Shown here piece by piece: positions 10,176 to 47,411 of a stretch of 64,000 nucleotides of DNA (the first letter of the stretch is position 1; the number at the start of each line of letters is the position of its first letter). A program made the translations under genes and the position numbers. The stretch is from assembly GCA_030059675.1 (NCBI GenBank), contig JANVYQ010000002.1:32001-96000 (forward strand), read 5' to 3'. This DNA comes from Candidatus Pelearchaeum maunauluense (GTDB lineage: Archaea > Thermoproteota > Nitrososphaeria_A > Caldarchaeales > Caldarchaeaceae). The notes below the pieces were generated by a model. The model did not search any database and had not been told where the DNA came from. It saw only the letters and a program-made list of their open reading frames with translations.

Positions 10176-10553
10176 TTATTTCTGCTGCCTTATCTCCGCT
10201 ATCTTCTTGACTATCTCCTCTAAATATCCCTTAGCCTCGCCTGGGTCTGTTATGGAGACAGCGCTGGCTGCCACAGCTATCCCAGCGACCTCGCCCAGCT
10301 GAGCCTTTGAGGGAACGAACATGTAGGGTATCTTCTTCTCGTCGCAGAGCGTCGGTAGGAAAGCCACTATCTCGGGCGGGTCTACGTCGGTGCTTATGAC
10401 GACGAACTTGGCTTGGCCGCGCTCTATGGATTTTATCACCTCATTAACGCCCTTCCTAATCTTGCCCGATGTCCTAGCTAGTCTTACAGCCTCTAGAGTG
10501 GCGCGTGTTAGCTCTTCAGGTGGCTGGAAAGTTACGTAGTATGGATTGGGCAT
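10176..10553 (-). CDS. rpl7ae: Ribosomal protein L7Ae (K-turn binding protein)
   Basis: KIRKGVNEVIKSIERG, DVDPPEIVAFLPTLCDEK. Confidence 0.96.
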   Translation of the reverse strand: MPNPYYVTFQPPEELTRATLEAVRLARTSGKIRKGVNEVIKSIERGQAKFVVISTDVDPPEIVAFLPTLCDEKKIPYMFVPSKAQLGEVAGIAVAASAVSITDPGEAKGYLEEIVKKIAEIRQQK

Positions 10554-43024: not shown

Positions 43025-43659
43025 ATGAGGAAATACGAGCTCCCACAGCTACCGTATTCCTACGAGGCGCTGGAGCCTTATATATCCCGCGAAATAATGA
43101 CGTTGCACCATAGCAAGCATCATCGGGCCTACGTAGACGGCGCTAATGCTGCCTTAGAGCGCCTAGAAAAGCAGCGCAGAGGAGAAAGTCAGGAGAACGT
43201 AAGAGCGATTTTGAGGGACCTTAGCTTTAATCTATCAGGCCATAAGCTGCATAGTGTATTTTGGTGTAACATGGCGCCGCAGGGCAAAGGAGGAAAACCA
43301 GGAGGAGCAATAGCAGACCAAATAAACAAAGACTTCGGCAGCTTCGAAGCATTCAAGAAACAATTCAGCGACGCAGCAAAAAACGTAGAAGCAGTAGGAT
43401 GGGCAATACTAACATACGACCAAGAATCAGACACCCTACTAATCTACCAAGTAGAAAAACAAAACTTCATGCACCCACCACACCTACCACTACTACTAAC
43501 ACTAGACGTATGGGAGCATACGAGGCTGGGCGTATTGCCCCCTCGGCTCAGGCCTACTACCTCCAGTACAAGAACGACAGAGCAAGCTACGTGGAGCAGT
43601 GGTGGAACGTGGTTAACTGGGACGATGTCGACAAACGATTCTCTAAGGCCAAAGTTTAA
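43025..43659 (+). CDS. sod: Fe/Mn superoxide dismutase, spliced model join(43025..43519,43552..43659), 200 aa
   Basis: [32 protein letters not shown] then [20 protein letters not shown] in a different frame after a 32-nt insert. Confidence 0.93.
43520..43551 (+). other. Candidate bulge-helix-bulge mRNA intron (32 nt) in sod
   Basis: GAGC/GCUC 4-bp helix flanked by 3-nt bulges AUA and AGG; cutting after the second bulge nucleotide gives CAU|GCC (His-Ala). Confidence 0.88.
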
Positions 43660-43715
43660 CTAAGTTTTCCACATAATATTTTATATCCCAAAATTATTTT
43701 GTTTTTTATAAAATA

Positions 43716-45250
43716 TAGGGAGGGGAGTGGTCGGGTATAGTAGTCTATCTGCTCAATTTATCGCTGTCTATGTGGACAATATCCATAGAATCCTTTCGCT
43801 AGGTTGCAGTTAAAGCATAGAACTTGGAATTCCTCAGGAAAGTTGTTTTTAACTATCCATTTATAAAAGTGTATTCCCCAGCCTACTTGCTTGAAATGTC
43901 GTAAACCTCCTCCGTTTACGTGGTCTATTGATAGGAATTCAAGTCTAGTCTCGCCACAACAACTACAACGTGGGACTCCCCTGCTATAATACCTGAGTAT
44001 TTCCTTTCTTTCCTCAGCTAGTCTGATAGCCACTATAGACTTATGAGGGCATTATTCCATAAAGTGCTATTGCTTTATTGCAGTTGTAGCAGAGAACTCT
44101 AAAGCCTTCAGGGAAATTGTTCTTGATGATCCAGCAATAAAACTCTGTCCCTCCCCTAATCCTATAGCGACGCTTCTGTAAACTGCCATCCTGACGTATA
44201 TGGTCAATCGAAAGGAACTCTATTCTATCCTCGCCACAACATGTAGATTTGCCACCGTAGCGTTGTATCACTAAGGATTTAATCCGTCTTCTTCGCCGTC
44301 TCTCTCTTTCTCTGCGAATTTCGCGAAGTCTATCCCGACGTCGCCAATATGATTCACACCATATCTTGCGTACTCGCTCTTTGTTTCTTTCGAAATAGCG
44401 AATCCAACGACGATGTTGTTTTATTTTCGCATCATCTAACTTAGAGGAACTACTGCTCAATGCCTCCACCTCCCTACGCCCCTAGCACCAGCTCTACGGG
44501 AGCGCCTGCTCCTAAAAATCGTAGAGCTAAGCGCCTTTGTTCTACCGCCATCCAGGGCTTGATGGCGGTCCCGCATAGGCAGGGCCTTCATACTCCCCCT
44601 TGGTAACATATTGGGGGGCGGCCCGCTTGGCCGCGAGCCCCTGCCGTGCAGAACCGCCATCAGGTCGGCGACGCTAACTGTATTCAGAAGCACTCGCCGG
44701 AACTAGCTGGCAGATGACACTCGGCAGAAGGATAGCAGTATTTCCATCACCTGTCCAGGTTCTCCTCCCGTGTCTTCTCCAGGATACCCTCTACGCTGCC
44801 CCGTTCACCGCGTGCTCCAGGCATAGTTAAGCCCTTCACCGCACGCTCCAGGAAACAGTGTAGAAGTATCCGTTCACCGAAGACATGGGAGGATATCGGC
44901 CGTCATCTAGGTTCTGCATGCGGAGTATTGGCTCCGGGCCGGAACAGCCCTAGAAGCACCCTTCACTACTTGGCTCCTGGAGTCTAGCTAAACCTCCTTT
45001 CACCACCAAGCTCCAGGCAACCCCTAGAGCTGACCAACCCTTCACCACCAATACACCCACATGCAGCTCACCCATCAGGCCGACCTCCGTGAGGCTCAGG
45101 CTAAAACTCCCTTGAACATCAGGCGGAAGCCTAAGCCCCCGAGGCTCGGCACCATAACCCGACCACCCTCCGCCCGGACTCAAATAACTATCCGGGCGTC
45201 ACCCTATTTCAGGTGAGGACAGGAAAGAGAGAGGCTGGGCCGGTCGGGCT
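43716..45250 (-). ncRNA. Candidate large structured RNA with multiple K-turn/K-loop motifs, enclosing the HNH ORF in its 3' terminal stem
   Basis: Many long GC stems whose mismatches become G-U pairs on the minus strand; repeated CCUGGAG-N-GGUGAAGG motifs; 44464-44476 pairs with 43716-43727. Confidence 0.65.
43758..44460 (-). CDS. Tandem (double) HNH endonuclease-like ORF split by a 1-nt frameshift near 44052
   Basis: Two copies of CCGE..EFLSIDH..GG..FY.WI.KNNFP..F.VLC.NCN.A...YG.CPH; removing one base joins them as CPHKSIVAIRLAEE. Confidence 0.8.
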
Positions 45251-45256
45251 ACTTAA

Positions 45257-45613
45257 CTAAACATAATATTCTATTGCTCTAACTGGTTCTAGCTTTCTTG
45301 TTATCGGATTTACTCTCAGCCCTAGAGTCTCTAACGTTGTTACGCCTATCAATGGTTTTTCGTTTTCGTCCGAGAAAGTTACTAGAACTGGTCTCCTGGT
45401 GTTGTTTATCTCTATATCCGCTAGGCCTGCGCCTCTGCTTATAACTCTTCCATCAGCAAGCTCAACCTCAACCTCGTACCTCTTCTCTATCCCAACGAGC
45501 TCGGTGACTTCCTTAGGAACCTTAGTAAAGGTCGCACCAGTATCGGCTACACCATCAAGCTCGTAAGAACACTTAGGCCCGTGTATTCTGAAGCGGACAA
45601 GCACCTCTCCCAT
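45257..45613 (-). CDS. Clan AA aspartyl protease-like protein
   Basis: ADTGAT, LADGR, PLIGVTTLETLGLRVNP. Confidence 0.88.
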   Translation of the reverse strand: MGEVLVRFRIHGPKCSYELDGVADTGATFTKVPKEVTELVGIEKRYEVEVELADGRVISRGAGLADIEINNTRRPVLVTFSDENEKPLIGVTTLETLGLRVNPITRKLEPVRAIEYYV

Positions 45614-45636
45614 GCTACCTCTCACCTATATTTTCT

Positions 45637-45987
45637 TTACATAAGAATCTCTTTAGCTTGTCTATGAAGGCCTGAACTATTTCTGTCCCTCTCCTAACGA
45701 AGTCATCGCTAAGCCAGCCTTCATAGGAGTTCGTAGAGGCTGTTAGCTACGTGAAATGCGTCTACAAGCCCTTGCTCTGGATTCTCCCTATCAAGCTGTG
45801 AGACAAATTGGAATAGGCTTGCGTGAGTCCCCAGCGATATGCCCTTAGACGCGGCGACAGCCTTAACTGCTTCAACAACGGCTAACCAAAGCTTCCCCGA
45901 CGCCTGCGCATAATCTCCATTCCTCAACATCTCCTCAGCCTCCCTGAGGAGCTTGCCGCTAAGCTTAAGACGTTCATTAACGCTCAA
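45637..45987 (-). pseudogene. PaREP1 family protein, frameshifted near 45735
   Basis: GDYAQASGKLWLA; C-terminus (YEGWLSDDFV) lies in another frame. Confidence 0.75.
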
Positions 45988-46029
45988 AGACCTTCCGAAA
46001 TCAATTTACTTAGCAACCCCTATATACAC

Positions 46030-46440
46030 ATGACGCCAGCCAAAGGCGATACGCCCACTCTTTGCATCATGCGGAGAAGAGGCAGGCCATTGATTACTGC
46101 TGTGTTAACAATAAAGCCGGGCGGAAGGCGCAGTATGCTGTAGGTCATCTAGACCCCCTCCTCAACTCCCATCACCCAGACATAGGGTCTTTTGTTTTGT
46201 CTGGGTGGGCCGGCCACTCTACCCCTCCCAGCCACCCACCCCCAGCATGGATGGCTTCTAGGGGCTATGGGCAGGCCGGACCAGCCCGCCAGGCCCATTA
46301 AGGCACGCCAATTAGGCGCCTGGGGCGGCTCTTATGAATCATCCCCGAAGAAGCCCCACCCCCTCCGTCGCCGGAGAAGGCCACGCTCAGGACCCAAGCG
46401 TGTTTAAAGGGGCTCTTAATCGGGGACTCATGGTCCCAAA
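46030..46440 (-). ncRNA. Candidate structured RNA segment
   Basis: Nested stems UCCCCGA/UCGGGGA, GAGCCCC/GGGGCUU, CCUUCUCCG-GCGA-CGGAGGGGG (GNRA loop), CACCCAGACA/UGUCUGGGUG; no credible ORF. Confidence 0.55.
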
Positions 46441-46454
46441 TGGCTCACAGACAA

Positions 46455-46610
46455 ACCTGCTTATCCAAGTAACTTGAGAAGAAACCTGACCAGAAACTTG
46501 AGAACTAACTTGAGCAGAAACCTGAAACCAGCTGAGAAGGCTGTTTAAGCAGTAAAGGTACTGGTCAAGTTTTTACTCAAGTTTCTACTCAAGTTACTTT
46601 TATAAACCAG
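46455..46610. repeat. Two oppositely oriented arrays of 12-bp units (AACTTGAG core), each ending at a TATA-like box
   Basis: Five units 46469-46528; three reverse units 46562-46597 followed by TTTTATAAACC. Confidence 0.8.
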
Positions 46611-46935: not shown

Positions 46936-47148
46936 TTATATTGTTCCGGCAGTTATTTCCGCTAACTGTTTTAGTATTCCCCTCTTCTTTGCATTCCACA
47001 CTTCTATTCCCATAACCATACCTCTATCGTCCCTCTCAACTATTATCCCATCCTCTAACTCTTCAACCGACTCAGAAGGCCCGTCCCTCAAGTGAATGTA
47101 TAGAATATCATTCTCATGATCGTAGCTAAATCTCAAGCCCTCACCCAA
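46936..47148 (-). CDS. DUF2283 family protein (putative antitoxin)
   Basis: YDHENDILYI...GIIVERD..G.VMGIEVWNA. Confidence 0.85.
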   Translation of the reverse strand: MGEGLRFSYDHENDILYIHLRDGPSESVEELEDGIIVERDDRGMVMGIEVWNAKKRGILKQLAEITAGTI

Positions 47149-47411
47149 ACACCCCTATCCACCTTTCTTCTTATAAGCTTATCTACGCTCGACGAGTAAT
47201 AAACTGTCACAATTCTCACCATATCATCCCTTCTAGTAAAGACTATTACCAACATTCTCTGCCCTATAATCCCTATAGCTACCAATGTATCAGATTCAAC
47301 GTCGCGGAATAGCATGTTAGGCCTACTAATAATTTGCAAGACGTCATTCATATCAACTCTTCTTACCCGTATCTTCTCCTCAGCATGCCTAGTTAGCTCA
47401 ATCCTAACCAA
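47133..47411 (-). CDS. DUF4258/RelE-like protein (putative toxin)
   Basis: LTRHAEEKIRVR...LVIVF..IVTVY; overlaps the DUF2283 gene. Confidence 0.8.
   Translation of the reverse strand: MVRIELTRHAEEKIRVRRVDMNDVLQIISRPNMLFRDVESDTLVAIGIIGQRMLVIVFTRRDDMVRIVTVYYSSSVDKLIRRKVDRGVWVRA

Follow-up and report, generated by a model that had tools for sequence, protein, structure and literature searches.

What kind of element carries a noncoding RNA of about 790 nt that is followed by two small nuclease-like genes, and what such an RNA might do there, are the questions raised by a locus of Candidatus Pelearchaeum maunauluense. The locus lies in a 64-kb stretch of contig JANVYQ010000002.1 that was analyzed as a whole (the window); all coordinates given here are positions in this window, and the RNA is read on the minus strand, from 45250 to 44462. 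A large structured RNA had been proposed at this place from the letters of the DNA, and it proved to be real, with a strong fold (minimum free energy of -401 kcal/mol, z of -10.4, an equally good fold being found in 0 of 20 shuffles) that is kept in two homologous copies of 72 to 73% identity carrying compensatory changes. The GC content is 0.55 to 0.62 across the RNA versus about 0.37 to 0.47 in its flanks. The consensus fold from the three copies comprises 209 pairs, with compensatory changes in 23. In arm B, 93.9% of the cells were paired, compared with 41 to 57% when the partners were slid, and the five double-sided changes (2.1 ± 1.0 in shuffles) were matched by only 4 of 500 shuffles. 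Domain E has five compensatory pairs between the window and homologue L002, and the 5' C-rich strand shows, by eye, an A-U to G-C exchange relative to the related element L097. The span first proposed, 44462..45250, was correct for the RNA, but the feature continues past 44462 and, beyond two downstream ORFs, includes a C-rich motif (43736-43717). The whole cassette, whose continuation through the HNH genes to about 43710 had been missed, measures ~1.55 kb (45250 to about 43710, minus strand) and consists of the RNA, two small HNH-like genes and the C-rich end motif (Table 1).

Table 1. Features of the cassette, in the order in which they are read
Feature	Position in window	Strand	Basis
5' C-rich strand, can close the 5' three-way junction via the G-rich strand	45242..45250	-	Sequence reading
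5' junction: hairpin 1 (conserved loop), hairpin 2 and G-rich strand; superfamily signature	45154..45216	-	Model R2 and alignments
Arm A: long stem, internal K-turn-like motif, twin K-loop cap	44896..45082	-	Sequence, consensus fold, hairpin pattern
Arm A twin K-loops	45017-44996, 44980-44959	-	Hairpin pattern
Arm B: long stem, internal K-turn, twin K-loops, mini K-loop	44732..44896	-	Sequence, hairpin pattern, covariation
Arm B twin K-loops	44852-44832, 44821-44801	-	Hairpin pattern
Domain C, small, variable	44668..44732	-	Consensus fold
Domain D: 3' three-way junction, conserved C-rich hairpin loop and joining strand	44552..44665	-	Consensus fold, alignments
Domain E: stem with U-rich bulge and inner hairpin	44481..44542	-	Consensus fold
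G-rich, Shine-Dalgarno-like stretch at ORF1 start; could also pair with the 3' C-rich motif	44461..44480	-	Sequence reading
Cargo ORF1, 142 aa: long helical basic N terminus and HNH-like domain	44041..44469	-	ORF, family alignment, model
Cargo ORF2, 91 aa: N-terminally short ORF1 paralogue (54% identity), complete Cys/His HNH-like motif	43758..44033	-	ORF, alignment
3' end motif: C-rich strand complementary to the 5'-junction G-rich strand, then T-rich run	43708..43736	-	Sequence, duplex energy

The arms are built on K-turn and K-loop motifs, for which we looked for a bulge of 3 nt with tandem sheared G-A pairs after it, between a canonical stem (or loop) and a noncanonical stem. At least six had been claimed, and seven sites in the sequence have these features: four K-loop hairpins, two internal K-turns and one mini K-loop. 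The pattern of the twin hairpins matches the window four times, at the places claimed and always on the minus strand (starts at 45017, 44980, 44852, and 44821), and the whole 1.79-Mb genome 18 times on both strands, seven of these matches being inside two copies of the RNA. The internal K-turn of arm B (44893-44856 with 44798-44763) and its mini K-loop (44759-44744), which contains a box-C-like sequence, read as had been described and are kept in both homologues. A further internal K-turn-like motif was found by reading in arm A (45054-45038 with 44938-44925); it is kept in homologue L003, the arm A of which has a single hairpin instead of the twin, and deleted in L002. The stems that flank the motifs show G-U to G-C exchanges in the homologues, the motifs themselves being conserved, and the genome has a gene of the L7Ae family.

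As the sequence-only reading had anticipated, the RNA fell into no Rfam family, with no match at gathering score in the whole window. In E-value mode (E ≤ 10), the region from 44000 to 45700 gave only chance-level microRNA and sRNA matches, and 26 related loci gave tRNAs plus one chance-level sRNA match (SorX, 24.3 bits, E of 0.055). RNase P and SRP RNAs had already been set aside, and both are encoded on other contigs of the genome; C/D and H/ACA guides and group I/II cores had been set aside as well, and for them there was no Rfam match at gathering score and only chance-level ones at E ≤ 10. No description of the RNA was found in full-text searches of the literature, where the supplements on TIGR-Tas and on IS110/Nop5 may list overlapping archaeal loci.

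Carriage on mobile DNA, also suggested from the start, is indicated by the patchy distribution of the RNA (2 of 76 genomes of the order), a truncated second copy and the swapped endonuclease genes. A model of arm B (R1) recovered no copy in the 76 genomes beyond the three already known. In a genome contig collection, an exact 18-letter motif pointed to 10 stretches, the sole real one (L006) having the same alignment figures as L003, while none of 10 stretches examined in a metagenome contig collection was real. Three patterns gave 0, 0, and 6 matches in a viral contig collection, the six being at chance level, and when the RNA was searched by BLAST in 401 genomes of the phylum, the matches were all of 25 to 36 nt (E of 3.5e-4 to 8e-3) and were treated as chance. 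A 90 to 99% relative was seen in run X1. Modularity is apparent at another locus (X2), where the HNH gene pair is found behind a different upstream sequence together with an L003-like piece of domain D.

The 5' junction is far more widespread than the arms. Model R2, built on it, scored the junction of the window at 66 bits (E of 2.6e-15) and had 35 matches in 18 of the 76 genomes, with all four families of the order represented. Full-length alignment showed that both the 5' and the 3' junctions are common to RNAs preceding either LAGLIDADG genes or a protein of ~280 aa; domain D is also common to other RNA subfamilies, in which the arm hairpins carry, by eye, no K-turn signatures. The window RNA is a K-turn-rich branch of a larger, undescribed RNA superfamily, a relation that the sequence-only reading had missed. 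At 34 distinct sites, the same-strand downstream gene codes for the ~280-aa protein in 15 cases, for a LAGLIDADG protein in 9 and for an HNH protein in 1 (the window), with neither in 2; the 7 sites without a cargo call are at contig ends or outside those examined, all counts being taken from compared coordinates. LAGLIDADG genes occupy the cargo position in the two sister copies of the window RNA.

The ~280-aa protein was found in 32 of the 76 genomes, a single genome having as many as 31 matches; many of the matches lie at contig ends or contain stop codons. Most of its copies have no R2-detectable RNA nearby, and the genome with 31 protein matches (G038) has no R2 match. Its predicted structure (pLDDT of 90.9) has as best Foldseek matches the IS621 recombinase with its bridge RNA, ISCro4, and TasR with tigRNA (E of about 1e-6, probability of 1.0, TM of about 0.6, roughly 310 columns). 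At the level of sequence, none of 11 members matched the Pfam IS110 families (PF01548 / PF02371) at E ≤ 10, the protein had no significant Pfam or NCBIfam family, and a sequence-profile search of PDB with it and with the cargo HNH-like protein gave chance matches only. Its link to IS110 would thus run through the modeled fold alone, plus motifs that we take, by eye, to match those of IS110 recombinases. Since the RNA family most often accompanies this IS110/TasR-fold protein, a guide or scaffold role is indicated rather than catalysis. A DEDD RuvC-like plus Tnp/Nop-like recombinase, present by fold beside the RNA in relatives (15 of 34 sites), is absent from the window, and neither tblastn nor profile search returned a cognate recombinase in the window's own genome (94% complete). 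The window copy would therefore work only in trans or be a relic; the structure of its RNA is nevertheless kept by selection.

In the window, the cargo position is occupied by the two HNH-like genes. HNH domains are recognized by their His/Asn residues and zinc-binding Cys residues in a beta-beta-alpha metal finger; the motif of the cargo family is invariant across 22 sequences. ORF2 has a Pfam HNH match below threshold (E of 0.042). ORF1, in which the last Cys/His of the motif is missing, has no significant Pfam or NCBIfam family; its predicted structure (pLDDT of 89.9) gave weak fold matches (E of 0.5 to 3), HNH nucleases being most of those listed, the best ones included. The HNH proteins of the window have no Nop domain. 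The G-rich stretch at the start of the ORF recurs at LAGLIDADG loci.

The two ends of the cassette are related as well. The far-end C-rich motif and the G-rich strand in the 5' junction are complementary over 16 to 20 bp and co-vary. In the window, this duplex reaches -33.4 kcal/mol and tops its row and column in a 9 by 9 matrix, in which the own-element duplex was the best of its column for five of the nine elements. Each of three sequence classes fits its own ends, with about -33 kcal/mol compared with about -22 kcal/mol across classes. Within the related L097 group, cross-element duplexes equal the own-element ones, and in L078 the complementarity fails altogether. The same arrangement was found in 8 of 8 IS110-like elements, with the motif 94 to 136 nt past the stop codon. 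The complementary stretch could equally be a DNA-level inverted repeat, a closing helix of the RNA or an anti-Shine-Dalgarno/terminator feature.

Our preferred explanation, to which we assign a probability of roughly 0.45, is that the RNA belongs to an archaeal IS110-like element in a derived form that has no recombinase, and in which a bridge-RNA-like scaffold acquired K-turn modules that are presumably bound by L7Ae. RNAs of the superfamily would normally form the 5' part of multi-copy elements encoding the ~280-aa IS110/TasR-fold protein, and two small HNH-like genes in the window, and LAGLIDADG genes in the two sister copies, would have taken the place of the recombinase gene. The RNA and the cargo gene would be cotranscribed. 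With both long arms kinked and capped by L7Ae at about seven predicted sites, the RNA would act as a scaffold of the bridge-RNA type whose G-rich strand recognizes the end of the element. This recognition might take the form of an RNA-RNA closing helix or of RNA-DNA pairing with donor or target.

It is also conceivable, though unlikely, that the RNA is a giant cis-acting leader of an endonuclease mRNA, providing stabilization against heat and control of the translation of a potentially toxic nuclease through L7Ae, the K-turns and pairing of the 3' motif with the ribosome-binding site. Regulation by L7Ae through K-turns in 5' leaders has been published (accessible portions of PMC5539422 and PMC6298567), and the RNA stands upstream of a same-strand ORF at the loci compared, with a Shine-Dalgarno-like stretch that can pair with the 3' motif. 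At six LAGLIDADG loci, the best partner of the C-rich motif is instead the ribosome-binding region, which speaks against the preferred explanation, with a weak shuffle control (|z| under 2 at most loci) that is uninformative because any C-rich shuffle pairs with a G-rich RNA. However, genes of three unrelated protein families follow this RNA, it occurs at two loci (L108 and L109) without any such ORF behind it, and LAGLIDADG genes of the same protein family exist without a large RNA. Moreover, we know of no leader that approaches a length of about 800 nt with seven K-turn motifs.

Quite unlikely, in our view, is an autonomous ornate RNA or RNP traveling on mobile elements, an archaeal counterpart of GOLLD, ROOL, and OLE scaffolded by L7Ae, beside which nuclease and transposase genes were merely inserted. 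The size, the ornate symmetrical arms, the arrays of identical small hairpins found in each RNA subfamily and the location in variable islands and mobile contexts would all fit such an RNA, but the order of RNA, ORF, and end motif is fixed and the end motif co-varies with the 5' junction, which ties the RNA to the cassette and argues against a chance neighbor.

A self-splicing intron, a bulge-helix-bulge intron or another ribozyme with a homing endonuclease gene in its loop is very improbable despite an ORF lying between two strands able to pair, endonuclease genes swapped as in group I and II introns, and the occurrence in this archaeal group of rRNA introns that carry homing endonucleases (PMC3082918, accessible text), as no intron family was matched at gathering score or up to E of 1 to 10, no host gene is interrupted (the upstream gene stops at the 5' edge of the RNA and a convergent gene lies beyond the 3' end), the L002 copy is antisense to a truncated ATPase gene, the closing helix has, by eye, no two 3-nt bulges 4 bp apart, and comparison of a filled with an empty site places the start of the G006 RNA about 800 nt within the inserted segment and not at its edge. 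On these grounds group I, group II, and bulge-helix-bulge introns were rejected, and the ribozyme that the sequence-only reading had offered as one option found no support.

The derivation from an IS110-like element bears on a published scenario, since box C/D RNPs (Nop5, L7Ae, and K-turn RNAs) have been derived from IS110- or TIGR-like systems through protein fold and RNA architecture (PMC12045711 and PMC11213020, as far as their accessible text goes). According to the part of PMC11213020 available, IS110 recombinases are linked to Nop5; the corresponding part of PMC12045711 describes a common architecture of TIGR, IS110, and box C/D guide RNAs, to which snoRNAs add K-turns that recruit L7. 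It seems doubtful that in the present RNA the transition from bridge or TIGR guide RNAs to box C/D RNPs survives as a living intermediate, with a two-armed scaffold of the IS110/TasR type that recruited K-turns and hence L7Ae; if true, it would be the step that these scenarios place between IS110/TIGR systems and snoRNPs. The lineage unites an abundant transposon protein of IS110/TasR fold that Pfam does not recognize, a large conserved RNA upstream of it and a K-turn branch of this RNA, and should this RNA prove to bind L7Ae as well as the recombinase-fold protein, the link proposed from IS110/TIGR to box C/D would become testable at the bench. Even a conservative reading adds a thermophile family of large structured RNAs and an IS family, both new, as well as an example of nuclease gene swapping inside such elements.

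Among known systems, GOLLD and ROOL are carried on mobile elements such as prophages, and HEARO has been described as an RNA associated with the HNH-endonuclease gene of a transposon. The archaeal RNA resembles GOLLD, ROOL, OLE, and HEARO in size and in its ornate conserved fold, but differs in its archaeal host and in arms built on K-turns, without sequence or model similarity to them. GOLLD, ROOL, and OLE are large structured RNAs, and RNA-only multimeric assemblies have been reported for GOLLD and ROOL (10.1101/2024.12.08.627333, in its available part).

With box C/D sRNAs and other L7Ae-bound RNAs (RNase P, H/ACA), the window RNA shares K-turn and K-loop modules with a 3-nt bulge and tandem G-A pairs and, with the former, the box-C-like sequence of the mini K-loop. 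Box C/D sRNAs have the boxes C (RUGAUGA) and D (CUGA) and antisense guides of 10 to 12 nt. In contrast, the window RNA is about 790 nt long, its motifs deviate from the C and D boxes, and it has no single-stranded guides of 10 to 12 nt because the strands between its motifs pair with each other. The resemblance to TIGR-Tas lies in TasR being among the best fold matches, in the repeated small hairpins of each subfamily and in the HNH gene that follows the RNA of the window, whereas no regular tandem array with dual spacers was seen and the window has no Nop-domain gene. In TIGR-Tas, processing yields RNAs of 36 nt.

Bridge RNAs of IS110 elements (IS621 and ISCro4) contain two internal loops, through the strands of which they pair with the target and the donor DNA. 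In the archaeal RNA we identified neither a second guide nor two guide loops of this kind, its complementary stretch measures 16 to 20 bp, the associated protein has no Pfam IS110 match and the window copy has no recombinase. Bridge RNAs are also several-fold shorter than the RNAs of the archaeal family, in which 57 to 1114 nt separate the 5' junction from the ORF. The accessible text of PMC12045711 mentions no K-turns for them. The likeness is that of a structured RNA with a two-armed body and one segment complementary to the end of the element, placed upstream and on the same strand of a multi-copy transposon protein with a matching fold.

The window RNA differs sharply from its surroundings, with a GC content of 0.55 to 0.62 versus roughly 0.37 to 0.47 and a minimum free energy of -401 kcal/mol (z of -10.4), a value that none of 20 shuffles equaled. 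This bears out the sequence-only reading of a GC-rich, long-stemmed non-coding RNA on the minus strand. A pattern for the twin hairpins described there matched four times in the 64-kb window, at the coordinates given for them and always on the minus strand and within the RNA, and 18 times in the whole 1.79-Mb genome, seven of them in the window RNA or its second copy. The internal K-turn of arm B, one of the two long stems between the 5' and 3' junctions, and a small K-loop also read as had been described. We found an additional K-turn-like motif inside arm A that matches the one in arm B, and the two arms are therefore built alike (stem, K-turn, stem, twin K-loops). The Rfam search that had been proposed matched no known class over the window, with zero families at the gathering score and nothing credible up to an E value of 10. 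The RNase P and SRP RNAs of the host were located on other contigs. An L7Ae-family gene (102.5 bits) lies elsewhere in the window, some 34 kb away from the RNA.

Features of the cassette and its neighborhood in the window
Feature	Coordinates	Strand	Remark
Structured RNA	45250-44462	-	
Internal K-turn-like motif, arm A	45054-45038 with 44938-44925	-	
Small K-loop	44759-44744	-	
Cargo ORF1	44469-44041	-	small ORF downstream of the RNA, same strand
Cargo ORF2	44033-43758	-	small ORF, paralogue of ORF1
C-rich end motif and T-rich run	43736-43708	-	
Superoxide dismutase gene	43025-43663	+	
Insert in superoxide dismutase gene	43520-43551	+	32 nt
Aspartyl-protease-like gene	45257-45625	-	
PaREP1/HEPN gene	45721-45987	-	neighbor
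BrnT-like toxin gene	47133-47411	-	neighbor
Flank	45255-46500		
Second GC-rich segment	46150-46420	-	
L7Ae-family gene	~10230-10499	-	

Two homologous copies were recovered. The first (L002, contig 19 of the same genome, 72% identity) is a relic; its RNA 5' end and the abutting P-type ATPase gene are cut at one shared junction. The other (L003, 73% identity) belongs to a genome of another family within the order, and a named record of NCBI lineage Caldarchaeales (L006) gave alignment figures identical to those of L003. By BLAST and the arm B covariance model, this K-turn subfamily was present in only 2 of the 76 genomes searched from the order. No convincing relative of the window RNA appeared among 401 sampled genomes of the phylum, and metagenome and viral scans with the conserved motifs gave no further copy of the K-turn RNA. 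In one vent metagenome run, contigs spanned most of the cassette at 90 to 99% identity (11 contigs at 95 to 99%, 11 at 90 to 95%, and 3 below 90%). The consensus fold common to the three copies has 209 pairs, and the compensatory changes anticipated in homologues were present in 23 of them. In arm B, 93.9% of cells were paired versus 41 to 57% with slid partners, and 5 double-sided changes were counted versus 2.1 ± 1.0 in shuffles (reached by 4 of 500). As they derive from only three related sequences, we take these figures as support for the fold and not as decisive. Our confidence that the structured RNA represents a genuine family not described before is high.

The family extends beyond the K-turn subfamily. 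A full-length alignment showed that the 5' and 3' three-way junctions are common to the window RNA and to RNAs upstream of LAGLIDADG genes. Two hairpins, the first with a conserved loop, and a G-rich strand make up the 5' junction; the arms between the junctions differ among subfamilies, each with its own small hairpin in several copies, and K-loops are used by the window's subfamily only, the others being without K-turns. Relatives of the LAGLIDADG protein were found in 46 of the 76 genomes (up to 33 matches per genome), and regions upstream of several loci were strongly folded (z of -6 to -14 with eight mononucleotide shuffles) and matched zero Rfam families. R2, a model of the 5' junction built from 8 sequences, scored the window RNA at 66 bits and gave 35 matches in 18 of the 76 genomes (10/17, 4/19, 1/4 and 2/35 by family of the order). 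LAGLIDADG genes of this protein family very often adjoined a convergent tRNA gene at its 3' end. Among 20 loci scanned, 13 had tRNA matches (14 in total), at least 10 of which were convergent and no more than about 200 nt from the ORF end, with coordinates read by eye. In genome G018, all five LAGLIDADG genes (L082 to L086) have their 3' end toward the 3' end of a tRNA gene, a different one each, with the tRNA gene starting 32 to 97 nt (median of 52) past the reading frame's end and, in L083, overlapping the frame. This suggests homing sites beside tRNA genes.

The cargo of the window cassette is different. A Cys/His/Asn motif is invariant across ORF1, ORF2 and 20 metagenomic relatives, one of them annotated as McrA by one source. 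The structure model of ORF1 (pLDDT of 89.9) gave weak fold matches (E of 0.5 to 3), HNH nucleases making up most of those listed, the best ones included, and the only Pfam match was HNH for ORF2 at an E value of 0.042; by these predictions we call both HNH-like. In L002 and L003 the corresponding ORF is a two-motif LAGLIDADG endonuclease, and in one hot-spring run the HNH gene pair lies behind other upstream sequence, which makes the cargo an exchangeable module. A C-rich motif and then a T-rich run follow the ORF in every copy. The flank had no match in five related genomes, so the RNA sits in a variable island. In the second GC-rich segment, where GC reaches 0.675 and the fold z is -4.1, one stretch is similar to the G-rich strand of the 5' junction (weak R2 match of 11.9 bits, E of 0.36); the segment is possibly what remains of another member of the family.

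Comparing the 34 distinct R2 sites by coordinates (two of the 35 matches are antisense to each other and count as one site), the first downstream same-strand gene encoded a protein of about 280 amino acids and no recognised family at 15, LAGLIDADG at 9, and HNH genes at 1, the window. Two sites (L108 and L109) had neither cargo and an ATPase-like gene next, and seven, at contig ends or outside the examined set, were left without an assigned gene. By pairwise BLAST the ~280-aa proteins are a single family with members in 32 of the 76 genomes; a single genome has as many as 31 matches, and many matches fall at contig ends or contain stop codons, the signature of an active insertion sequence. Searches of Pfam, NCBIfam and PDB sequences found nothing for this protein. 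The top structural matches of its AlphaFold model (pLDDT of 90.9, pTM of 0.85) were the IS621 recombinase with bridge RNA, ISCro4, and TasR with tigRNA (E of about 1e-6, probability of 1.0, TM of about 0.6, roughly 310 columns, full length). The alignment, inspected by eye, contains what we take to be motifs resembling those of IS110 recombinases. The RNA probably belongs with IS110/TasR-fold elements. At L095, L096 and L145 to L150, a conserved, apparently structured region of ~110 nt follows the IS110-like stop codon, ahead of the C-rich end motif.

The C-rich motif at an element's far end has its complement in the G-rich strand of that element's 5' junction. In a 9 × 9 duplex-energy matrix, the own pair was best in its column for five elements, ranked second to fourth for three, and failed for one, L078, a weak R2 match. 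Three sequence classes (window and L003; the L097 group; L141 and L142) pair with their own ends at about -33 kcal/mol versus about -22 kcal/mol across classes. In all eight examined elements that carry the IS110-like gene, the C-rich motif lies 94 to 136 nt past the stop codon, and duplex energies range from -24.9 to -40.8 kcal/mol. The G-rich strand has a further potential partner in a shorter C-rich strand just 5' of the first hairpin, and L108 and L109 carry a complete end-like motif and T-run immediately upstream of the 5' junction. The complementarity could equally reflect an RNA closing helix placing the ORF in a loop, bridge-RNA-style RNA-DNA recognition of the element ends, an inverted repeat acting at the DNA level, or a feature of terminator or anti-Shine-Dalgarno type. 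At six LAGLIDADG loci the C-rich motif pairs best with the ribosome-binding region, with a weak shuffle control.

An intron or ribozyme reading found no support. No Rfam intron model matched the window or related loci, the cassette sits between two genes (the stop codon of the aspartyl-protease-like gene on one side, the convergent superoxide dismutase gene on the other) and not inside one, and L002 is antisense to a gene fragment. In G006, a 2.6-kb segment carries an RNA-LAGLIDADG unit, the same site in G008 and G003 is without it, and the RNA starts about 800 nt within the insertion. A second ~2-kb insertion in G006 relative to G008 (L099, 370-2348) holds an IS110-like gene copy, with TTAA at both junctions and no R2 match in the 600 nt upstream of the gene. 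Other intron candidates were noticed. The superoxide dismutase insert, between the ...VWEH and AYYLQ... codons, shifts the reading frame; G001, a genome of the same genus, has the identical 32 nt, with 0 nt at that position in four others of the family. The insert is a candidate mini-intron of the bulge-helix-bulge type within a protein-coding gene, its helix judged by eye. In G000, a 16S rRNA piece (contig 18:5-1390) covers 638 model positions in 1,386 nt, and the 23S rRNA (contig 14:10397-14670) covers 2,987 in 4,274 nt; therefore, both genes probably hold introns. BLAST gave no similarity between these regions and the window RNA.

Of the sequence-only interpretation, the novel K-turn-rich RNA on mobile DNA stands. 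The ribozyme is not supported; the context points instead to a scaffold that resembles a bridge RNA and belongs to a family of IS110-like elements, with predicted transcription, a full mechanism to which we assign a probability of about 0.45. It is weakened because the IS110-like protein was not detected in the window's genome (94% complete), no pair of guide loops was found in the RNA, no RNA-seq run was found to carry the sequence, other subfamilies are without K-turns, and many protein copies have no R2-detectable RNA nearby (G038 has 31 protein matches and 0 R2 matches). The fold-only link to IS110 weakens it as well. In IS110 elements the bridge RNA is located upstream of the recombinase gene. 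The ~280-aa protein is linked to these elements by predicted fold. PMC12045711 describes their bridge RNA as the one that the transposase binds and that recombination needs.
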